Counted from the first letter of the stretch, positions 21,026 to 32,000 are shown. The stretch is 32,000 nt of DNA from Candidatus Thorarchaeota archaeon (GCA_048882505.1 JBHLRO010000014.1:30001-62000); one strand, 5' to 3'. Notes: generated by a model not told the origin, from the sequence alone. Made by a program: numbers and translations.

Positions 21026-21087
21026 GCGACAGTCCAATCCTTAAACGAAATCTACGGTATAGCGAGAAGTATTCCTTTCTCATCGGA

Positions 21088-21095
21088 TATTTATA
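21088..21095 (-). promoter_or_regulatory. Archaeal TATA box of giant gene (TATAAATA)
   Basis: Plus strand tatttata equals TATAAATA on the minus strand, starting 70 nt upstream of ATG 21025. Confidence 0.7.
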
Positions 21096-21099
21096 GCCC

Positions 21100-21122
21100 T
21101 ATGATCTGAAAATTGGATCATA
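21100..21122. promoter_or_regulatory. Palindromic operator copy 1: TATGATC-N9-GATCATA
   Basis: Perfect 7-bp arms, 4 bp from the TATA box; near-identical copy at 22837-22859. Confidence 0.75.
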
Positions 21123-21290
21123 CTCCCTCTTAAGCTATTTTCCCATGAAAATACACCGTTAGAATAAACATAATCCCAGGCAAAATATATCGAGACCAAT
21201 GTGAAAATACTATGAAAGAAAACGGATTTGAATGGAGATCAGATAGCTGAATTCTTTTAAGGGAAGATAAGTGAACTTGGATTGAACTCT

Positions 21291-22808
21291 ATGCTTTTTG
21301 GGACACGGGCGCCTTTTACCCTAATGGTCGTATCCCTTATTTTATTCATTTCAGTCCCTTCAAGCTTGTGCTCTTCCCTAATACAATCTTATTCAAAACC
21401 CGTAAGCGGGGTACCTAATGATTTAATAAGCAGACACTCAACAGTACAGATTAATACTCACGGTTCAACTGACATCAGCTTGTCATCGAAACAGGGTCTA
21501 CATCAATATCAATTAGGGGACACCGAAGTTTTCAGCATAGATACAAAAACTAATTTCTCTGCCACCTGTAGTCTAATCGGACAAGATGTCTATATCTTCC
21601 AAGACCAGCGTATTTCTGTGTCTTTGAGCATAGAGGAGATATCTAACACAATTACGGCTAATATTACCCCCTTATTGAATTCATATTTCGGGCCTATCCC
21701 CGATTTTGATTACAATGGGAGGTTTATCCTGGTTCTAACGGACCTCCCATCGGGGCTTATCGCATTTTTCGACCCCGTGGATCTAACGTGGTCTGGATTC
21801 CAAGGAGAAATCATTTATGTTGATGCGTACGAATTTAGTTATGAGGCCCTAGTCCACGAGCTCCAACATCTCCTGCACTTCGTTGCTGACTCTTTTGAAG
21901 AAATATGGCTCAATGAAGGGTTTTCGGTCTATGCAGAGTATCTCTATCGCAAGGATCTTTCCTCCTCGGAATTGTTAGAAAAGATACAATATCCACAGGG
22001 AACTTCCTTAATCTATTGGGATAATTCACCCAATCGAGTCACCAGTTATGACTGCGTGAGGGGATTCATGTATTATTTGATGGAAAAATTCGGACATACG
22101 ATTCTTAGACAGATCTATTATGCTGAAAAAGCTGGAGTTCCATTGCATGGATTAGAATCAATCTTGTACACTTTACAAGAAAATAGTCTTCATTACTCCG
22201 CAAGCGAGCTATTTCAGGAATGGCAAATTGCGATGCATCTGGGTAATTCATCGAATGCATTGAACCGAACCTGGTTATTCGATAATTTCACCGTAGTTCC
22301 ATCCCTCTATGTCTTTCCCTCTGATAATTTCTGGGGGAACGATTATCCGTATCAAGAGCATCATTCTATTTTGCCAATGGCCTCTATATCGTTTTATTTC
22401 CATGATTTCCCTGATGGGAACCAAATTAATGTTATTCTTACTTCCTCCAAAATCGATGAAAAGCTGAGTCTCAATTTAAGTTCGACCTTGATCAAAGTGT
22501 ACAATAATAATGAATATATTATTGAGGATTATTATCTTGATCAAAAGGGGGTATTAAGTATAAACTTAAATCAGACCCAGGATAAATTCTTGGGATTCTA
22601 CTTAGTGGTCTATCTTTCAGGATTATTGGAGGGAGGTTATCTTAATGACATCCCTGAGATTGCTAAAGGGATTAATTTCGAATTACGGATTGAAGCGGGA
22701 CAACGGGATCGTATATTTTTACCTATCATGCTACTTGCATTATTGGGAGTTGTTGTTATGGGATTTCTGGCGGTTAAAGGTACCAAGAGGCTGATGAGGG
22801 TAGAATAA
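21291..22808 (+). CDS. Membrane-anchored secreted zinc metallopeptidase (gluzincin, M30/hyicolysin-like)
   Basis: Signal peptide, LVHELQHLLH (21855-21869) followed by EEIWLNEGFSVYAEY, and C-terminal TM (IFLPIMLLALLGVVVMGFLAV) plus KGTKR. The track starts at TTG 21282; I prefer the in-frame ATG at 21291. Confidence 0.85.
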   Translation: MLFGTRAPFTLMVVSLILFISVPSSLCSSLIQSYSKPVSGVPNDLISRHSTVQINTHGSTDISLSSKQGLHQYQLGDTEVFSIDTKTNFSATCSLIGQDVYIFQDQRISVSLSIEEISNTITANITPLLNSYFGPIPDFDYNGRFILVLTDLPSGLIAFFDPVDLTWSGFQGEIIYVDAYEFSYEALVHELQHLLHFVADSFEEIWLNEGFSVYAEYLYRKDLSSSELLEKIQYPQGTSLIYWDNSPNRVTSYDCVRGFMYYLMEKFGHTILRQIYYAEKAGVPLHGLESILYTLQENSLHYSASELFQEWQIAMHLGNSSNALNRTWLFDNFTVVPSLYVFPSDNFWGNDYPYQEHHSILPMASISFYFHDFPDGNQINVILTSSKIDEKLSLNLSSTLIKVYNNNEYIIEDYYLDQKGVLSINLNQTQDKFLGFYLVVYLSGLLEGGYLNDIPEIAKGINFELRIEAGQRDRIFLPIMLLALLGVVVMGFLAVKGTKRLMRVE

Positions 22809-22836
22809 AAGATATTTTTGTGAACATCAGTAGCAA

Positions 22837-22859
22837 TATGATCCAATTTTTCGATCATT
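22837..22859. promoter_or_regulatory. Operator copy 2: TATGATC-CAATTTTTC-GATCATT
   Basis: 20/23 identical to the reverse complement of 21100-21122; lies in the intergenic gap upstream of the wHTH gene. Confidence 0.72.
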
Positions 22860-22863
22860 CGGT

Positions 22864-22871
22864 TTTTTATG
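22864..22871 (+). promoter_or_regulatory. TATA-like element (TTTTTATG) of the wHTH operon
   Basis: Exactly 4 nt downstream of operator 2 and 69 nt upstream of ATG 22933, mirroring the giant-gene promoter. The sequence is degenerate. Confidence 0.45.
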
Positions 22872-22932
22872 GTTTTTTTCTTGTGTCTTCGGAAAGAGAC
22901 GAATTCCCAGAGGGACACAATTGAGTGGTTCA

Positions 22933-23613
22933 ATGATTACCGTACCCGCCCCTTTTAACAACTGGCTTTCAGAAAGATCGTGTATTTCTTGTGTTTTATC
23001 GCCTCTGTGTAATAGCTTTACCTACAAAGAAATCGCTATCATCCAATTGTTCCTGCGGAAGGCCAAGGAGGGGCGGCACTTCTTTCCCCTCACGGAATTC
23101 CATGAGGAATTTATTAACTACTATTATTATGATAGAGATGGATATTCCACTTTCTACAATGTCATCAATGATTTAGTAACGAGAAAGGCCATCCTGATAA
23201 AGGTAGACGCAGATAAAATCCAGGATTTCAAGATCTCTAATCCCCATGACGTTAAACTGAATAAAAAAGATATCCTATTCTTGCTGAACCCCGCTTATTC
23301 CTTACGATATGAAGACTTCTTTAGCGTTAATTCTACCTGTCCGATTGGCTTGAATCCTCTTTGTTATCGGATCCTCGATGTCTTAACCGACTCTAATGGT
23401 CTCACGTCCCATCAAATTCACCAAATCCTTAACACAGTCCCCACACATGAATACTCACTATTCGAGGAACAAAAATCCAAAACCATTCATATTCAAACTA
23501 TTCGGAAGCGTTTGAACGAACTTGGGGCTATTAACCTGATCATTATTCATCATACCCAACCTACCTTGTATTATCCAAATTATGCACATTATTTGGTAAA
23601 TAAACGGACATAA
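22933..23613 (+). CDS. Tandem winged helix-turn-helix protein, putative transcription regulator
   Basis: C-terminal TrmB/ArsR-like wHTH (LNPLCYRILDVLTDSNGLTSHQIHQILN...IQTIRKRLNELGAINLIIIHHTQPTLYYP) and an N-terminal wHTH-like unit (YKEIAIIQLFL...FPLTEFHEEF...YSTFYNVINDLVTRKAI). No TM or signal peptide. ATG 22933 is preferred over TTG 22921. Confidence 0.7.
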   Translation: MITVPAPFNNWLSERSCISCVLSPLCNSFTYKEIAIIQLFLRKAKEGRHFFPLTEFHEEFINYYYYDRDGYSTFYNVINDLVTRKAILIKVDADKIQDFKISNPHDVKLNKKDILFLLNPAYSLRYEDFFSVNSTCPIGLNPLCYRILDVLTDSNGLTSHQIHQILNTVPTHEYSLFEEQKSKTIHIQTIRKRLNELGAINLIIIHHTQPTLYYPNYAHYLVNKRT

Positions 23614-23626
23614 AGGTGTCATAATC

Positions 23627-26600
23627 GTGTTTATTGCGAAAAATAAGTACCTACTAACAAATCTTATCATTTTTCTCCTTTTGATGGGCAGAGTTGCGGC
23701 CACAGTCCCATTTCTACAAGAGGACGGAGTCAGATCCCGTCCTCTCTCTCCCGAAGCTACAAATGGACTACAATCACTGGGTCCAAAAATTACATCGAGC
23801 GATAAGATCAACATCTCCCTCATAGACCCCCTCAATAATTCCATTGTTAAGGGGGGCACATCAATCATTATTGAGTTCTTAGACGAAAATGGATCGGTTG
23901 TGTCTCCCGTCACCGAACTGTATCGCTGGGATTACGGAGCCAACTTTGAATCCATCCTACGACCCTTACCCGTGTCTGAAGGCAGTCACACGCTAGAAGT
24001 GGAGGTAGAATCAGAATCGGGAATTTGGTCATCAAAAAAATTCGCCTTTAAGAGCGACAACACTCCTCCTCAAATTATTTTGACATCACCAGAGAATGAG
24101 ACATATGTGAATAATTCTGGAGATATTCGAACCTGGGATACCAATTATGTGGGCAGCCTACTTGCTGCAATAAATGTAGACAATATAGATTTCGATTCTC
24201 TCCCCGATATTCTTGTCGGGGGATCCAATGGGCGACTTTATGCGTTTAATGGACGATATGGGACCCCAATCTATTTGACCCCGCAATATGCGACGGCCCT
24301 CACAGAAATCACGGTCTATAATCAGTCTCAAGCACTTCTCGGTCTCGCCAATGGGGATCTGATCGGAGTAAACACGACAGATGGTAATACTGAATGGACA
24401 AATTCAACTGGTACATCCCCAGTGATCGAGATTAGAAACGATAATGACACAAAATCGTTAGTGGTGCTAAATGAAAAGCAGATACGGGTCTTCAATTACT
24501 CGGGAAATGTTGTCTGGGATGTAAATCAGAGTATCACGACCCAGAATACACGGCTGCATTTTACTGATTACCTGGGGGATAACCGATCCGAAATCATCCT
24601 CGTGAATGAAACGTGCTTTGTGAAAAGTTTCAATATCTCAGATGGGGTTCTCATCTTTAACTTTTCAACCTCACTAGCGAGCTACGAATATTCTTTAGTC
24701 GAAAACGATACGATTTACATATCCAGCTCTAATGGGTATGTGGAAAAGTACAATCTTACTGATGGTTCTCTCATCTGGACAAGAGAAGTGGCTGTGTCTC
24801 AAAATATCTATCAGATCACTAAATCCAACGATGCACTCTTCTGTTCGGCCTCAGGTGGAAGTATCACCAAATTGAATGCTACCGATGGTGCCATCCTATG
24901 GAGCCAACAGATATCCTCAAGCTACATTAAGTATTTCTTGATTGAGGATTTTAACCTGGATAATAATCTGGAACTCCTGTTTTTTGATGGGAATGGGGTC
25001 ATAACCAACATGGATGTTCAGACAGGGGACACTACATGGAATTATGGAACATCACTGCATTGTAATGGTATGATTTCATGGGAAGTCACTAACGACTCAA
25101 TCAATGAAGTGATAATCATTACCACCGAAGGTACTTTACTAGCTATAGACCCACGATCAAAAGTCCCTAACCTAGTTCCATCTTGGACAAATGTTACCAT
25201 TGGATTTCAAGATTCAGTTTCTAATGGTATAATATGGGAAAAATACTCTTGGGACGGGAACCCTAATCAGTCATATCCAGGTGTAATCCCTGCCACGAGT
25301 GGAATCCATACTTTGGATGTCTGGGCTAGTGACAATGCCAGTAATATTGCACATGCCCATTATGAGTTTTATGCGGCCATCAATATCCTGCTCAATGGTC
25401 CGCCAAATAATAGTCGCCAACAATCTGGGACATATATCAATCTTACTTTGTCAGAGGCCCCACTAGAAGCTCTCTATAAATGGGATGCTGGTGTTTACCA
25501 AAGCGCCTTAACTAATCTGCCAGTAAGCGAAGTTGTTCACCACCTCTACATCATCCTGAAGGATCAATCATTTAGTACTGTCAACTTCCATTACGTTTTC
25601 ACTACCGACGACACCCCAATTACCTCTATCACTTTGCTTTCTCCCACCAATGACACGATAGTGGAGGGAGGGGAGGCTTTACAGATATCCTTTAGCGAAA
25701 TCCCATTCATTGAACTATATAACTGGGATGGCGGAAGCAACATCACGACAGTGGATAACATCCCCGTCTCAAGTGATACTCATGTCTTAGATGTGTATGC
25801 AGCAGATGAGGCCCTTAACTGGAAATCCATACGATTCGTTTTTTATACGAAAATACAGATAGATTTAGATTCACATACCAATGATACGGTCATAGATCCT
25901 ACCGATGTTCTTTGCTTCTCGTTCGGTGAACCCCCTGATACCTACGTTATCCAGATTGATAATTCATCTCCCATCATATATACAGATCAGAACCAGACTC
26001 TTAATATGTCCTTACACACCGCAAGTAAGACCTATAGACTAACCATTAGTGTTAACGATTCGGTTAATGGGCGGTGGAATAATGAAACCTATTTATTCGT
26101 GGTTAGAATCTTCGTCAACATTACATCACATGCTGATGGTGGATTTGCGGAAACAGGTGATCCATTAACGATTTACTTCTCGGATCCACCGATCACAAGA
26201 TTGTTTTCGTGGGATGGGAATAAGAACAGTAGCAGGATGCCAGTTGTCCCGGCACCAGACGGAGCTCATTACCTTGACATATATGTAGGAAACATCGAGG
26301 GCCAATTCTGGCACTATCATTATGATTTTAACGTGGATACCGATCTGATAGATATTCTCTTGATTAACCCAGTTAATAATACCAAAATCAATTCTTGGGA
26401 AAATGTAACTTTTGATTTTAGTGAACCGCCATTCATAGTCAGCTACCAGTGGGACAATGCCTCTGCGAGTACAAACTTAACCGACATTCCCTCCATTGAT
26501 GGAATTCATATACTGAATGTCACCGTTGAAGATGAAGCAGGGAATACAAACAGTAGATTGTTCAGTTGGATTGTTGATGATACACCGATTGATGTCCAGG

Positions 26601-27448
26601 TCTTTCTTAAAAACAACGATTCGGTCATCCTCACAGGGGAATATCTGAACCTCACCTTTGATGAAGCCCCTGTCGTTGAATGGTATCGATGGGACAACAA
26701 TGGAGGTTTTTCCCCGACTCTACCACCCAATCCTCATACCAATGGTACCCACTCGCTAAATGTGACCGTATATGATGGTCTGAATTGGAATATAGAAATT
26801 TTCAACTTTACAGTTCAGGATCTTCCCCCTATCATTGAAATTGACGATCCAACTAAACCTTACATGTCGGGGATCATACTTTCTATTGAGGTCAACGAAG
26901 ACCTAAGTTCATCGTGGCATAAATGGGATGATGAGGATTCCAAAGAAGGACTGGTCGTCTTCACTCCTGAAGGAAACGACGGGTATCACACCCTGCAAAT
27001 ATTCGCGGTAGATATGGGAGGCTCAACCACCACAATAACTCTGGACATCCTTCTGGACAATACCCCGATCTCTATTACGGAACTATCGCCTGGGAACAAT
27101 AGTCAAGTGAGGGCTGGTACGAATGTCACGATCGTGTATAGTGAAGAACCTTACAATGTATCTTATTCATGGGATGGTAATCTCGCAGCAGGCAGCCTAT
27201 CTCCCATTCCAACAAATACGGGGGAGCATAAGCTGAATATCCGAGCTTACGATGAAGCGGGCAATGTATTGAATGTAGACGTTTACTATGTAATACCCAC
27301 ACCCATAGAAGATTTGTCTCCATATTTAGGAATAATAGGGATCGTTAGCACAGTAGGAGGGGTGCTAATATATGTCAAACGGGAAACAGTACGTAGTGCT
27401 TTGGGTAAAATAAAAGATGTCTTCAAACCCCCCAGACAAGTCAGTTAG
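23627..27448 (+). CDS. Cell-surface glycoprotein: ~10 Ig-like repeats plus PQQ/FG-GAP-like beta-propeller, C-terminal TM anchor
   Basis: GTG start and signal peptide. ~80-aa repeats I.L.SP.N.T...G..I...FSE.P...Y.WD....P...G.H.L.V.A.D.AGN. Propeller blades (DFDSLPDILVGGSNGRLYAFNG, NATDGAILWSQ, DFNLDNNLELL). TM YLGIIGIVSTVGGVLIYV followed by KR. Many NxS/T sequons. Confidence 0.9.
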   Translation: MFIAKNKYLLTNLIIFLLLMGRVAATVPFLQEDGVRSRPLSPEATNGLQSLGPKITSSDKINISLIDPLNNSIVKGGTSIIIEFLDENGSVVSPVTELYRWDYGANFESILRPLPVSEGSHTLEVEVESESGIWSSKKFAFKSDNTPPQIILTSPENETYVNNSGDIRTWDTNYVGSLLAAINVDNIDFDSLPDILVGGSNGRLYAFNGRYGTPIYLTPQYATALTEITVYNQSQALLGLANGDLIGVNTTDGNTEWTNSTGTSPVIEIRNDNDTKSLVVLNEKQIRVFNYSGNVVWDVNQSITTQNTRLHFTDYLGDNRSEIILVNETCFVKSFNISDGVLIFNFSTSLASYEYSLVENDTIYISSSNGYVEKYNLTDGSLIWTREVAVSQNIYQITKSNDALFCSASGGSITKLNATDGAILWSQQISSSYIKYFLIEDFNLDNNLELLFFDGNGVITNMDVQTGDTTWNYGTSLHCNGMISWEVTNDSINEVIIITTEGTLLAIDPRSKVPNLVPSWTNVTIGFQDSVSNGIIWEKYSWDGNPNQSYPGVIPATSGIHTLDVWASDNASNIAHAHYEFYAAINILLNGPPNNSRQQSGTYINLTLSEAPLEALYKWDAGVYQSALTNLPVSEVVHHLYIILKDQSFSTVNFHYVFTTDDTPITSITLLSPTNDTIVEGGEALQISFSEIPFIELYNWDGGSNITTVDNIPVSSDTHVLDVYAADEALNWKSIRFVFYTKIQIDLDSHTNDTVIDPTDVLCFSFGEPPDTYVIQIDNSSPIIYTDQNQTLNMSLHTASKTYRLTISVNDSVNGRWNNETYLFVVRIFVNITSHADGGFAETGDPLTIYFSDPPITRLFSWDGNKNSSRMPVVPAPDGAHYLDIYVGNIEGQFWHYHYDFNVDTDLIDILLINPVNNTKINSWENVTFDFSEPPFIVSYQWDNASASTNLTDIPSIDGIHILNVTVEDEAGNTNSRLFSWIVDDTPIDVQVFLKNNDSVILTGEYLNLTFDEAPVVEWYRWDNNGGFSPTLPPNPHTNGTHSLNVTVYDGLNWNIEIFNFTVQDLPPIIEIDDPTKPYMSGIILSIEVNEDLSSSWHKWDDEDSKEGLVVFTPEGNDGYHTLQIFAVDMGGSTTTITLDILLDNTPISITELSPGNNSQVRAGTNVTIVYSEEPYNVSYSWDGNLAAGSLSPIPTNTGEHKLNIRAYDEAGNVLNVDVYYVIPTPIEDLSPYLGIIGIVSTVGGVLIYVKRETVRSALGKIKDVFKPPRQVS

Positions 27449-28225
27449 ATGGTAGCAACATTGAAACAGTTCAATTACAAGGATTTAGGAGCTATTCTAA
27501 TTATCCTATTTACCATCTCAATAATTTGGTTGGTCTTTTTCTCCCCCAAAGATCAGGTCACCGATCCAGTGGCCATCCTCGAGTCGGCACCTTTTCTAGT
27601 TGGAGCTTTTTTATCGTCCCCGATGTTCTTCTTCCTGATACTTGGTGTTCTCATATATCTAGTTGGTAGTCCTTTGATGTTAGTTCTCTCGAAACCTATT
27701 TTGAATAAATGTGAGTATTGTACGAGTTTGAGGGGTGATGAGGAACCGTATTTAGTAAATGGGCATTGCGTTAATTGCAATCTTCTCATTTGTTCTGAAT
27801 GTTTTAGTCATACGAAGCGTAAGACAGGTTGTCCTAACTGTGGCGCTCAAAAGTATAAGTTTCGCAAAAGATTAGGTTATTTCCGTCTTCGGAAGAATGA
27901 ATGTGGATTTTGCACTCCGATAAGATCGGTCACATCTCCTCTTATCTCGAATGTTCAATGTAGAGGATGTCGGAGAATAATGTGCCACAAATGCTTCCGT
28001 TATGAAAAGAATGACAAAAAATATGGATGTCCGAAGTGTGGGAGTATCGAATTCACTTCAGGAGTGACGGTGGCGTACACCCGTTTACCCCGTTTAAAGA
28101 GAAGGATACATAAAACGCGAAAACGGGTAACCAAGAAATTAGTCCCCTTACAAAGCCAAATAACTAAAAAAAATAACCCCTCTACGGAAATGGTTGAAAA
28201 AGAGGCATACCCCTTCAAGAAGTGA
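27449..28225 (+). CDS. Membrane protein (2-3 N-terminal TM) with two tandem C8 zinc fingers (FYVE/PHD/RING-like) and basic tail
   Basis: CEYC-x15-CVNC-x4-CSEC-x9-CPNC (27710-27841) and CGFC-x15-CRGC-x4-CHKC-x11-CPKC (27902-28039); K/R-rich linker and tail. Start abuts the upstream stop (TAG ATG). Confidence 0.85.
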   Translation: MVATLKQFNYKDLGAILIILFTISIIWLVFFSPKDQVTDPVAILESAPFLVGAFLSSPMFFFLILGVLIYLVGSPLMLVLSKPILNKCEYCTSLRGDEEPYLVNGHCVNCNLLICSECFSHTKRKTGCPNCGAQKYKFRKRLGYFRLRKNECGFCTPIRSVTSPLISNVQCRGCRRIMCHKCFRYEKNDKKYGCPKCGSIEFTSGVTVAYTRLPRLKRRIHKTRKRVTKKLVPLQSQITKKNNPSTEMVEKEAYPFKK

Positions 28226-30966
28226 GTGATCAGGATTTGGTGACATCTTACATGCGGTCAGCTAAACTCTTCCTCCTTCTGATCTGTCTTTCCGCTGTAT
28301 GTACTCACCTTGCTCTCAGCAAGACCTCTAGGAGTGTTATGGGTTTCCATGTAGGAAAACAGAGTTTTGCTCCAAAACAGAGTTTTCGGGCCTCTATTAA
28401 TGGAAGGACGAAAATAAACCAAAATGGAACTCCCCAACAAGATCCCATTAATCTGAAATCATTTCCGCAATCTATCGACTATGATATCAACATAGCATTC
28501 CTTGGTATTTTCGCTGATGAAGTCAATCTGACCAAACTAAAAGAATTGTCACCTAAAACGTCCCAGATAAGTCGTTACGTCCCATTGTCGTATTTATTTG
28601 AGACCTACATCAATTACTCATTAAATTATAATTATTACTTCTTCGGGAGTAGTGTAGCTGGTGAATTTTCAAATGTCCTCTCTAGATATGGGAATTTCAG
28701 TTTTCCAGTAGATATGGCACTATACTGGTCTGGTAGGACCAGTGTAAGTCAATACTCTCGTTTGTCCATCAATGAACCAAAAAACTATTTGTCAACGCTT
28801 TTTGATCCTCAAACGCCCACTATTTTCATTGCGAATCTCTTCCACAACGACTCTACTTTTTATCAAAACCAGAATGCTGAACCACACACATATTTTCTGG
28901 AAAAAGTAGATATTGATACCCAACAGTTCTCAATGCTAAGACAAGATGGGAAATACGCGCCAGGGTTTGATTGGGCGGATCGAAGATGGATTTTCATCGA
29001 TATATCCAGTGGCCCTTCCCCCTATGAGACTTCAAGCGGTGATTTTACTAACTTCGTTGAATTCCGTGAAGGATCCCTTGATGCCTCTGGTGTGGCTACT
29101 GTTTGTGCTAAGATAATAGAGGCAGTAACGTTTTCGAGATTTGTCCCAACCTATCTATATGAACCCACTTGGGATGCAGAGGTTGAGGTAGCGCTTGGAC
29201 TCTTCCACGAATCGAGCTTTGACATTCAGAGTTACATAGACATTGTAGAAATACAAAATTCATTTACTGGACTGCTACCATACTCTACGATTGAGATAAC
29301 GACAAACGATCAAATTTTTCAAAATAATAGTGAATTAGATACTTGGTTACAGTACATTGATAGTTTCACGGATTATACGACGTGGGCATCGAAACTTGTA
29401 GAATTCATGACAAATAAAGAGGATGACCTGTTTGGTGCTGCTGATAAAAAGCGGGTGATGGTGGGGGTATTCGCATTAGATGTTATAGCTGGCCATGATG
29501 ATGCCTTGGGTTTCACCTATGCCCCATTAGGGAGCTCCCATTCATCGGGTAGTGTTGTCACGATCACTCCTACGACTATAACGACTAATGGTGAAGGATT
29601 AACACAAACCATCATCCACGAGATTGGTCATAGTCTCTCTCTCAGGCATCCACACGACTATAGATATGATGGTACTCTATACAAGTTTTGGACTGGGGAC
29701 GTGAGTGAAACCCCCCTCTCATATCTGCATAGTGTGTATGAGTGGGGAGAATTAGATAAGGATATGCTGCACAGGGGGCAATATCGTTACCTCTTCAACC
29801 AGACATCTTGGTTATTGGATGAAATCAAAGCAGAGTCGTTATCGAGAAATTTTCCTGAAAATAGATTCCCTAGGGATATCTATGGAGAACTGAGGAGTGG
29901 ATCCAGCTCTTTTAATCATTCAATAACCCTATTTACCAGTCACAATTACACGGCTGCTTTGCAGGAAATATATCCCGTCTTTCAAGTTATGCAAGACTCC
30001 CTCGCAAATGTTTCGGCCCTGTCAGATTATTTTGCACCAATCGTGAACGTCTACAATGCAAATAATTCGAAAGTTGAATACGGTGACACACTCACCATTA
30101 CAGGTAAGACGGTAACTTATGACATACCGACAGTTCAAATCCTCACGAGTTACAGGGACTATAATGCCAGTCTAGATGTTACTAATTATACGCTCTTCCT
30201 TTATGAAACTGAGTTTCTAATAAGCATACCAACCCTGATTTTTCCCCAAACAAGCAATTTAGATCTTTGGATATGGGTATATGACGGTATTGAATATTAT
30301 AAGTATAATCTTACATTCATTACTCACCTAGTCAGCATAAATATTATATCTCCGATGAACAACATGCTTTTAGATGCTTCTAATGCAGATTCCCTTAAGA
30401 TCTTTGGGGGGTATCAATCCATCTCAAATCGATCCCAACTCCAAATATTGTATGGTTCTTATTGGTATGTAAAAGACCGGGATTTTGAAAATTCAAGTTA
30501 TTGGGTTCCCGTGAATAAGTCTACTGCTTCCACTTGGGAATATACAGTAAATATTTCATCGTTCGTCAATGGTGACAATACCATTAAAGTTCGTATCTTT
30601 AATAACAGGTCAGTTCATACGGATTCTGTCAATCTAAGGATACAAGGGTTACCCCAAAACGAAACAGTACCTGTCGAACCAGATAAACCCCCTCCCATAA
30701 CCACTGATCCTCTTCAAGCCCAACCTCCGAGGTTAATTGATCAACTCCTAATATTTGGACTCATTGGAACCATAGGAATCGTCATCGTTCAGGGGGTAAG
30801 ACAATATTTTCGACAAAAAGGGGAAGAAAGAATTGTTGGGGAGGATATACCCCTTCCTGGACTCTCACGTGAGCTTGAAGAATTAAAACAGAAAATGGCC
30901 GAAAAGGAGAAAAAACGGGTTAAACCCCCCAAAAAGACCGAATTTGTACCAAAAAGAAGGAGATAA
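28222..30966 (+). CDS. Membrane-anchored secreted metzincin-like zinc protease
   Basis: GTG overlaps the upstream TGA (alternative ATG at 28252, MRSAKLFLLLICLSAVCTHLALS signal peptide). IIHEIGHSLSLRHPHD at 29617-29649, C-terminal Ig-like region, Pro-rich linker, TM LLIFGLIGTIGIVIV, charged cytoplasmic tail. Confidence 0.85.
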   Translation: MSDQDLVTSYMRSAKLFLLLICLSAVCTHLALSKTSRSVMGFHVGKQSFAPKQSFRASINGRTKINQNGTPQQDPINLKSFPQSIDYDINIAFLGIFADEVNLTKLKELSPKTSQISRYVPLSYLFETYINYSLNYNYYFFGSSVAGEFSNVLSRYGNFSFPVDMALYWSGRTSVSQYSRLSINEPKNYLSTLFDPQTPTIFIANLFHNDSTFYQNQNAEPHTYFLEKVDIDTQQFSMLRQDGKYAPGFDWADRRWIFIDISSGPSPYETSSGDFTNFVEFREGSLDASGVATVCAKIIEAVTFSRFVPTYLYEPTWDAEVEVALGLFHESSFDIQSYIDIVEIQNSFTGLLPYSTIEITTNDQIFQNNSELDTWLQYIDSFTDYTTWASKLVEFMTNKEDDLFGAADKKRVMVGVFALDVIAGHDDALGFTYAPLGSSHSSGSVVTITPTTITTNGEGLTQTIIHEIGHSLSLRHPHDYRYDGTLYKFWTGDVSETPLSYLHSVYEWGELDKDMLHRGQYRYLFNQTSWLLDEIKAESLSRNFPENRFPRDIYGELRSGSSSFNHSITLFTSHNYTAALQEIYPVFQVMQDSLANVSALSDYFAPIVNVYNANNSKVEYGDTLTITGKTVTYDIPTVQILTSYRDYNASLDVTNYTLFLYETEFLISIPTLIFPQTSNLDLWIWVYDGIEYYKYNLTFITHLVSINIISPMNNMLLDASNADSLKIFGGYQSISNRSQLQILYGSYWYVKDRDFENSSYWVPVNKSTASTWEYTVNISSFVNGDNTIKVRIFNNRSVHTDSVNLRIQGLPQNETVPVEPDKPPPITTDPLQAQPPRLIDQLLIFGLIGTIGIVIVQGVRQYFRQKGEERIVGEDIPLPGLSRELEELKQKMAEKEKKRVKPPKKTEFVPKRRR

Positions 30967-30971
30967 CCATT

Positions 30972-31523
30972 GTGCGAAGAAAAACTAGCATTCTAGTCTG
31001 TTTATTAAATTTAGTGTTGATAGCGAACGCTACGATTCAAGGTACCGTGTTTACCATCGATTCATACTCAATAAATCAAGTTTGGGAGATAATGCAGACA
31101 ACCGACGAATTTCTGATAATCGATGACAGGCCATATTCGGAATATGTCGAAGGGCATATCCCAACAGCTATCAGCATCGAGCTGAAGGAGACGGTCGATC
31201 CCACAGAAGTAGATACAATCAATGCTTACGGAAAGGAGTATAATATCCTTTATTGTGCCTGTCCAAATGGGGAGAATTCGGAGCATCATGCTGAAGAGCT
31301 CGTCAAGTTAGGCCTTGATTCTATCTCTTACATGCACGAGAGTTTTACTGATTGGGGATATCAAATCGTTACGGGTTCGGAACCAGGCGTATTGGTTTCC
31401 ACGACAATTCCCACCTCTACCCCCGATGGGGGATCGCCTCCACCACCGCTTTCGGATTTAATTTTAGTAAATCTGGTTTTGGTCATGGTCGCTGGACTCA
31501 TCATCTATTGGAAGAAGAAATGA
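30972..31523 (+). CDS. Secreted, C-terminally anchored rhodanese-domain protein
   Basis: Signal peptide; IIDDRPYSEYVEGHIPTAISI; active-site loop YCACPNGENS; YMHESFTDW; Thr/Pro linker; TM LILVNLVLVMVAGLIIYW followed by KKK. Confidence 0.85.
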   Translation: MRRKTSILVCLLNLVLIANATIQGTVFTIDSYSINQVWEIMQTTDEFLIIDDRPYSEYVEGHIPTAISIELKETVDPTEVDTINAYGKEYNILYCACPNGENSEHHAEELVKLGLDSISYMHESFTDWGYQIVTGSEPGVLVSTTIPTSTPDGGSPPPPLSDLILVNLVLVMVAGLIIYWKKK

Positions 31524-31540
31524 ATCAAAACGGATAAAAA

Positions 31541-32000
31541 ATGCGAACTCTGGTAGTTAGACACAAAAACTGGTTTCTGTGGATCATCGGATTCGGAGTA
31601 ATGATTACCTGGATTGGATTTTCGGTTCTCATGGGCTGGATTCGAGTGGATCCTAGGGAATATTTCCAAATTCCCGAAAGATCGTTTTATGGACTGACTC
31701 ATCCCGTACTATTTGCTTTTGGATTCTGCATAATATTTGTGAGTTTATTCATTATATTTCCAGCTTTGGGATCAGAAAGTCTCAAATTCCTGAAAAAATT
31801 AGACGTCGTGTTCGTATTAACTTCCATACTGGGATTGGACATCCTGCTGTATGGGATTGCCAATTTCCACAGTGAATCCATCCCTCTGCTGATGGATCAT
31901 CATACATGGTTTGATTATTCCATTATAGGGATTTTCCTCTTCATCTTCGGATTTACACCCATGGTCTTCATCGTCCAGGATTTTAAAAACCACAAAATTC
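31541..32000 (+). CDS. Multi-pass membrane protein of unknown function, 3'-partial (>=153 aa, ~4 TM seen)
   Basis: Not in the track. ATG 31541, MRTLVVRHKNWFLWIIGFGVMITWIGFSVLMGW...PVLFAFGFCIIFVSLFIIFPAL...VVFVLTSILGLDILLYGIA...YSIIGIFLFIFGFTPMVFIVQDFKNHKI; open to the window end. Confidence 0.85.
   Translation, partial: MRTLVVRHKNWFLWIIGFGVMITWIGFSVLMGWIRVDPREYFQIPERSFYGLTHPVLFAFGFCIIFVSLFIIFPALGSESLKFLKKLDVVFVLTSILGLDILLYGIANFHSESIPLLMDHHTWFDYSIIGIFLFIFGFTPMVFIVQDFKNHKI

Follow-up and report, generated by a model that had tools for sequence, protein, structure and literature searches.

The locus

The stretch analysed here, hereafter the window, comprises 32,000 nucleotides of the genome of Candidatus Thorarchaeota archaeon (GCA_048882505.1; JBHLRO010000014.1:30001-62000) and corresponds to positions 30001-62000 of contig C14 in a 4.32-Mb assembly, the organism being represented by DNA contigs from a sediment metagenome. 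Our subject is a pair of nearly identical 23-bp palindromic sites within this window and the two transcription units that they precede. Site 1 (21100-21122, minus strand) lies upstream of a giant gene whose 5' part fills positions 2-21025 on the minus strand, and site 2 (22837-22859, plus strand) lies upstream of ORF230 (P0001; 22921-23613, plus strand, read from the ATG at 22933), which is followed by further genes of an operon and is itself a candidate for the protein that binds both sites. Between the sites, on the plus strand, is a gene (21291-22808) for a 505-aa putative metallopeptidase. The preliminary description of this DNA did not mention this last gene, the presence of which makes the sites a pair of inverted repeats that flank it.

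The giant gene is a single open frame of 14,724 aa that runs from the ATG at window position 21025 to C14:6851 (C14:6851-51025) and begins with an N-terminal hydrophobic segment. The first 4,000 aa of the protein match no Pfam family. Three paralogues of its N-terminal 500 aa are present in the same genome, one at C38:16135 (open frame of 1,746 aa), another at C44:213 (1,728 aa), and a third on C66, which stop codons mark as a pseudogene; among 60 related genomes, no orthologue was found. The 505-aa protein combines an N-terminal hydrophobic segment, an HExxH motif and a C-terminal anchor with weak matches to Peptidase_MA/M1 and MXAN_6640, and thus appears to be a secreted or anchored enzyme of MA-clan-like type. 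The operon continues behind ORF230 over positions 23627-32000 of the plus strand, with the last gene running beyond the end of the window, and encodes, in this order, a 1273-aa PQQ-propeller/Ig protein, a 258-aa cysteine-rich membrane protein, a 914-aa metallopeptidase-like protein, a 183-aa rhodanese and a membrane protein.

Two dyads that occur once each

On the minus strand, positions 21122 to 21100 read TATGATCCAATTTTCAGATCATA, followed by GGGC and then by the TATA-like octamer TATAAATA (21088-21095 in plus-strand numbering, 63-70 nt upstream of the ATG of the giant gene). On the plus strand, positions 22837 to 22859 read TATGATCCAATTTTTCGATCATT, followed by CGGT and the TATA-like octamer TTTTTATG (22864-22871). 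The two sites are identical at 20 of 23 positions, the mismatches being confined to positions 15, 16 and 23, and have the same orientation relative to transcription, precisely as the preliminary description had it; the equal 4-nt gap between site and TATA-like box that it reported is present at both. Each site is a TATGATC-N9-GATCAT dyad. In site 1, the 7-bp arms are fully palindromic (7/7) around an A/T-rich spacer of 9 bp, and in site 2, the arms are complementary at 6/7 positions, a symmetry that, on the sequence, points to a dimeric or pseudo-dimeric binder. The similarity is restricted to the 23-mer, and the flanking sequences of the two sites have diverged. Because the 23-mer has been kept while its flanks have not, selection acting on the site, rather than recent duplication of a segment, seems to account for the resemblance.

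The end of the operator is 75 nt from the ATG of the giant gene and 74 nt from the ATG of ORF230 at 22933. These distances had been noted before and are correct as measured, the second of them only for this particular ATG: translation of ORF230 could just as plausibly begin at 22921, where there is an in-frame TTG preceded by GAGGG at 6 nt, and in that case the equality of the two distances is broken. Site 1 sits in a divergent intergenic region, 169 nt from the ATG of the peptidase-like gene on its other side, and site 2 begins 28 nt past the stop codon of that gene. Read along the plus strand, the sites are inverted repeats around positions 21123-22836, and no inverted repeat within the surrounding 12 kb has a higher identity.

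The pair is not a product of chance. A search of the window at up to 3 mismatches yielded 2 matches against 0.03 expected, a number reached in 0 of 100 shuffles, and a genome-wide scan of the kind that the preliminary description had proposed recovered these two as the only full TATGATC-N9-GATCAT sites in the entire 4.32 Mb, the next-best 23-mer having 5 mismatches; together, the window count and the uniqueness in the genome exclude a chance origin. There are 10 other matches to the looser pattern TGATC-N9-GATCA in the genome, 9 of which fall within open reading frames (ORFs) of at least 90 aa, so that C3:172967 is the single such match between ORFs. When the exact motif was sought in the collections genome_contigs and metagenome_contigs, each gave one unrelated match (one in a Balneolaceae bacterium, the other on a contig without homologous genes), which is the level expected by chance.

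Two further sequences resemble the sites or adjoin them. The 23-mer TATGATCCAAAATTTCGATTAAA at C14:4811-4833 (plus strand), about 2 kb past the stop codon of the giant gene, agrees with site 2 at 18 of 23 positions; the 10 nt on the left match throughout, and the right arm is degenerate. The sequence belongs to a duplicated segment common to C14 and C35, where an identical 23-mer occurs at C35:626 (minus strand), and is about 180 nt upstream of a gene for a 591-aa secreted protein of the right-handed beta-helix/NosD-like type that is convergent with the 3' end of the giant gene. It may be a decayed third site or a chance match, given that there are about 3 independent 5-mismatch matches in the genome. 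In addition, a second perfect dyad, TATTTTC-CCAT-GAAAATA, is located at 21138-21155, 15 nt from site 1 on the side of the peptidase-like gene, and is possibly the site of a separate regulator of that gene.

ORF230, a tandem winged-helix protein by fold

The 226-aa product of ORF230 (counted from the ATG at 22933) belongs to no named family by sequence. Its best Pfam matches, Trans_reg_C (E 0.074) and HTH_20 (E 0.19), are both far short of the cut-offs, and neither NCBIfam nor the sequences in the PDB gave a significant match. In searches of one protein library of 5.8 billion clusters and another of 1.84 billion representatives, the family consists of 7 sequences, namely, ORF230 itself, the paralogue P0002 encoded on the same contig (C14:62777-63487, minus strand; 51-53% identity), and five metagenome proteins that are 32-49% identical to it, one of these being a fragment of 117 aa. 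No ORF230 orthologues were detected in the 60 related genomes, the search yielding only paralogues within the present genome. The alignment of the family shows an invariant CxxCx5C before domain 1 and, before domain 2, a CPIGxNxxC motif in six sequences, with the last cysteine replaced by serine in P0007 and the entire region missing in the fragment P0006.

The structure models are more informative when taken by domain. The AlphaFold model of the full-length protein is poor (pLDDT 54), and Foldseek retrieved nothing significant with it. Within this protein, residues 31-118 form a helix-strand-helix-helix-wing unit with pLDDT of 66-87, for which VIA-align produced top rows that are nearly all winged-helix domains, including those of Orc/Cdc6, RosR, MecI, Fur and MarR, at Z 8-10.2 and rmsd of 2-3 Å over 72-97 residues. 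A separate model of the C-terminal 101 residues has pLDDT 75 (above 90 in the core) and shows the same H-b-H-H-wing topology as domain 1; here, Foldseek recovered the DNA-binding domains of Zur/Fur, BlaI/MecI, RosR, MarR and PadR with probability 0.99-1.00 and TM 0.50-0.60, the E-values being only 0.005-0.04. On these models, ORF230 is a tandem winged-helix protein, which bears out the earlier assignment of a winged helix-turn-helix gene to the position behind one of the sites.

The two paralogues on C14 have a peculiarity of their own. Approximately 150 nt of ORF230 (window 23021-23171), which encode the core of the first winged helix (YKEIAIIQLF...FFPLTEFHE), are about 80-90% identical in DNA to P0002 (C14:63228-63378, opposite strand), and the rest of the two genes is about 50-55% identical. 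The copies are inverted, some 10 kb apart, and bracket the whole operon. The conserved segment may reflect gene conversion and could serve as a substrate for inversion.

Linkage of the giant gene to the operon in another organism

The five metagenome loci that encode ORF230 homologues (L003-L007) retain the gene order of the operon to the extent that the contigs allow it to be followed. In L003 and L006, homologues of the operon genes stand in the same order behind the ORF230 homologue, and in L004, L005 and L007, the first two of them do so before the contig ends. In L004, a gene truncated by the end of the contig encodes a homologue of the N-terminus of the giant protein (37% identity over 453 aa) and is directly divergent from the ORF230 homologue and the PQQ gene, across an AT-rich intergenic region of 490 bp with no peptidase gene in between. 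The giant-gene family and the winged-helix operon are thus neighbours in another organism too, so that the link between the two that had been proposed from the window is now seen independently, and this recurrence supports a functional connection. The 505-aa peptidase-like gene is non-syntenic in the homologous loci, and its absence from the interval in L004 suggests that it was inserted between two promoters that had once been directly divergent.

Several features of the neighbouring genes can be recorded alongside. A 21-mer at 22798-22818 recurs with 86% identity at 27403-27423; both copies are at the 3' end of a gene, the first of them in that for the peptidase-like protein and the second in that for the 1273-aa protein, and the likeness suggests that both genes encode a similar C-terminal anchor with a basic tail. 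A second copy of the operon, which is without an ORF230-like gene, is located on another contig (C23:34164-41649) and consists of genes for a PQQ/Ig protein (47% identical), a cysteine-rich membrane protein, a 929-aa protease-like protein (41%) and a rhodanese; the region upstream of this copy differs from the C14 locus and, by eye, is markedly richer in G+C. Finally, in L003 (119-385) and L006 (6561-6788), the ORF230 homologue is preceded by a small conserved ORF that encodes a basic, possibly HTH-like protein of 75-88 aa, of which no counterpart was noticed in the window.

Promoter context

The genome is archaeal by its transcription machinery. It encodes two repeats of the TATA-binding protein (TBP) above the Pfam cut-off, and a search of the genome for sigma-70 region 2 found none. 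The closest TBP cluster in the Atlas is most frequent in Heimdallarchaeota, which is no more than a lead. Hence, reasoning in terms of the TATA box, transcription factor B (TFB) and the TFB recognition element (BRE) is appropriate here, and the framing adopted in the preliminary description stands. The box of site 1 is at a position weakly consistent with the genome-wide spread of TATA-like octamers, which are broadly enriched between -80 and -35, a distribution too diffuse to validate either box; the paralogues of the giant gene have TATA-like boxes at about -50 to -66. The five bases before the boxes, AGGGC at site 1 and TCGGT at site 2, are unlike the A-rich VRAAA that is the BRE consensus in Pyrococcus (PMC5937170), a euryarchaeal consensus that may not be that of the present organism.

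A proposed shared factor for two promoters

From this arrangement, we infer binding of the sites, a binder, a pair of start sites and a direction of regulation, to which different degrees of belief attach. That the sites bind a transcription factor is probable. The explanation that we favour, with a confidence modestly better than even, is that both palindromes are operators or upstream activating sites of one sequence-specific DNA-binding protein, most likely ORF230, and that this shared factor couples transcription of the giant gene to that of the ORF230 operon. If TATAAATA and TTTTTATG are TATA boxes, transcription would start near 21065 (21063-21066, minus strand) and at about 22894 (plus strand), and the bound factor would occupy approximately -35 to -57, overlapping the position of the BRE beside TBP and TFB. 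ORF230, as the product of the first gene behind site 2, would be the likeliest candidate, in which case it would autoregulate; its identification as the factor that binds the sites is tentative, and we rate it somewhat short of an even chance. As a dedicated local factor, it would co-activate the giant gene and its own operon.

The choice of activation over repression is a matter of slight preference. Archaeal factors that bind upstream of BRE/TATA at promoters with a weak BRE typically activate by recruiting TFB or TBP, and those that bind over BRE/TATA or further downstream repress (PMC5512572; PMC5937170). Because both promoters are without an A-rich BRE, and the site is located upstream of the TATA-like box rather than over the start site, activation through recruitment of TFB or TBP would be marginally favoured over repression through occlusion of the BRE, with the two remaining close to balance.

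The nearest precedent appears to be TFB-RF1 (PF1088) of Pyrococcus furiosus, whose palindromic binding site stands at a constant distance ahead of a weak BRE/TATA, both at its own operon and at one other (PMC5937170). The likeness extends to the placement of the palindrome just upstream of what may here be a weak BRE and a TATA box, to the combination of the regulator's own operon with one more unit, and to the very small, local regulon. The differences are considerable nonetheless. The TFB-RF1 motif, TCTGAANTTCAGA, has 13 nt, in contrast to the 23 nt and 9-bp spacer of the present sites; it is conserved in 28 organisms, whereas the present sites were not found outside one genome; and ORF230 has no sequence relation to any named family, with its binding and activation being predictions only.

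Other systems share single aspects of the arrangement. At the fla promoter recognized by EarA, and likewise at the Sulfolobus ara-box (PMC5512572), a cis-element directly upstream of BRE/TATA accompanies a non-consensus BRE and a large surface-structure operon, but the element of EarA consists of four 6-bp boxes without a dyad, and EarA is encoded away from its target promoter. The activating sites of GvpE at the divergent PA and PD gas-vesicle promoters (PMC2241852) are BRE-adjacent sequences that serve two opposite units of one functional locus. Those promoters are separated by 35 nt and their activating sites overlap, whereas 1.7 kb and a gene come between the present sites. GvpE, moreover, is a bZIP-like protein, not a winged-helix one. 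With respect to the protein, the comparison is with SarS (PDB 1p4x), whose two winged helix-turn-helix domains per chain could recognize a dyad site in the manner of a pseudo-dimer. SarS is one of the weak matches that Foldseek gave for ORF230 (rank 23), although this match is non-significant (E 0.13), and the cysteine motifs before each domain are specific to the ORF230 family.

Considerations that weigh against this explanation

A number of observations count against the shared-factor explanation, among them the failure to find the motif elsewhere. The preliminary description had expected conservation upstream of orthologues, an expectation that was disappointed: the motif was not found upstream of the five ORF230 homologues in L003-L007, which, being only 34-52% identical, make for a weak test, nor at the homologous loci in the 60 related genomes, which are without ORF230. 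At up to 2 mismatches, these 60 relatives contain scattered single matches at about the control level. Within the genome of the present organism itself, the motif was found neither upstream of P0002, where there is a different dyad, CGATCC-TCA-GGATCG, plus a lone TATGATC, nor upstream of the giant-gene paralogues on C38, C44 and C66. Comparison of the regions upstream of L003-L007 and P0002 revealed no shared palindrome of any kind, and the 490-bp intergenic region of L004 yielded only short repeats near the chance level.

The geometry of the sites adds to these difficulties. The centres of the half-sites are about 15-16 bp apart, that is, roughly 1.5 helical turns, a spacing that is awkward for a compact symmetric winged-helix dimer and would be better matched by a flexible protein of two domains, or by a pseudo-dimer, bound to a bent A-tract. 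As for the TATA-like boxes, both are present as described previously, but the second of them is weak: TTTTTATG departs from TTTATATA at 2 positions and is embedded in the T-rich TTTTTTATGGTTTTTTT, so that the call at this site looks soft, and the T-rich run could be an oligo-T terminator of the upstream peptidase-like gene, besides or instead of containing a TATA box. With two sites only, the conservation of the spacer in the same orientation could stem from common descent. Finally, adjacency is all that ties ORF230 to the site, and its paralogue P0002 is another candidate binder close by.

Alternative explanations

The last of these points leads to the most serious alternative, in which the sites are real regulatory elements but are bound by another factor, be it P0002, another nearby HTH protein or a global factor, and ORF230 is only one of the regulated targets. 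Such an explanation would accommodate the presence of a 51-53%-identical paralogue on the same contig and the lack of a comparable palindrome at the homologous ORF230 loci. We consider it rather unlikely on the whole. Local autoregulated factors with one or two targets, such as TFB-RF1, represent the commonest pattern in archaea, and the strictly local regulon seen here fits a dedicated, locally encoded factor; P0002, for its part, has its own, different palindrome before its start.

Distinctly less probable is a relic of promoter duplication. Here, insertion of the peptidase gene into an ancestral divergent promoter region would have been accompanied by copying of part of that region, and the palindromes would serve no dedicated factor or would function in the transcript, where they would form a hairpin or a terminator. 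Spacer conservation in the same orientation is what common descent predicts, and the T-runs after site 2, just past a stop codon, are in keeping with a terminator. Against this stand the conservation of the palindrome alone, with both flanks diverged, and the strict dyad symmetry, which is unexpected of a neutral relic. At the RNA level, hairpin folding is no better than that of shuffled sequences (z-scores +0.74, -0.46 and -0.57), Rfam gave no match, and on the strand of site 1, there is no upstream gene to terminate.

The least probable of the explanations considered casts the sites as recombination sites, that is, inverted repeats that bound a 1.76-kb invertible or once-mobile cassette with the peptidase-like gene and its promoter, comparable to hix/inverton sites or terminal inverted repeats. 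Although the sites are indeed inverted on the plus strand and bracket exactly one gene, which has no counterpart between the directly divergent giant homologue and winged-helix gene of L004, and although each is an imperfect palindrome with an asymmetric centre like hix-type sites, there is no recombinase or transposase among the window ORFs scanned against Pfam, no target-site duplication (the flanks are GCCC and CGGT), no further copy of the repeat in the genome or, beyond chance, in public collections, and no strand-switch joint in the assembled contigs, which show one orientation (weak evidence, as contigs hide minor forms), and this explanation would not account for the TATA-like boxes that follow outside the segment at the same 4-nt distance from either site.

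A possible family of regulators and its significance

A more elaborate version of the shared-factor explanation can be conceived, which we regard as unlikely in its entirety. ORF230 would found an undescribed and very rare family of single-chain tandem winged-helix regulators with a cysteine cluster before each domain, the monomer being a pseudo-dimer that recognizes the two arms of the dyad on either side of a bent A-tract spacer. Through a thiol, metal or iron-sulfur switch, production of the 14,724-aa surface protein would then be coupled to that of a conserved operon for extracellular processing, the members of which include the propeller/Ig protein, two metalloproteases and the rhodanese, with a VKOR in L006. 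Even short of this, the element is plausibly an operator at which a local regulator acts close to the promoter, a well-known kind of element whose setting here is an unusual gene and an undescribed regulator family.

To our knowledge, the number of regulator-operator pairs characterized in uncultivated archaea is small, and the switching on of genes tens of kilobases long in archaea has been little studied. The locus described here offers a minimal and cleanly defined case of a candidate regulator and its operator, made up of a single protein of 226 aa and two sites of 23 bp, for which the paralogue can serve as a control of specificity. Should the shared-factor explanation prove wrong, the palindromes would amount to a routine promoter motif. 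If, conversely, it is correct, the locus would define a new family of winged-helix regulators, and a giant orphan surface protein would become functionally tied to a conserved operon of secreted proteases, a rhodanese and a propeller protein.

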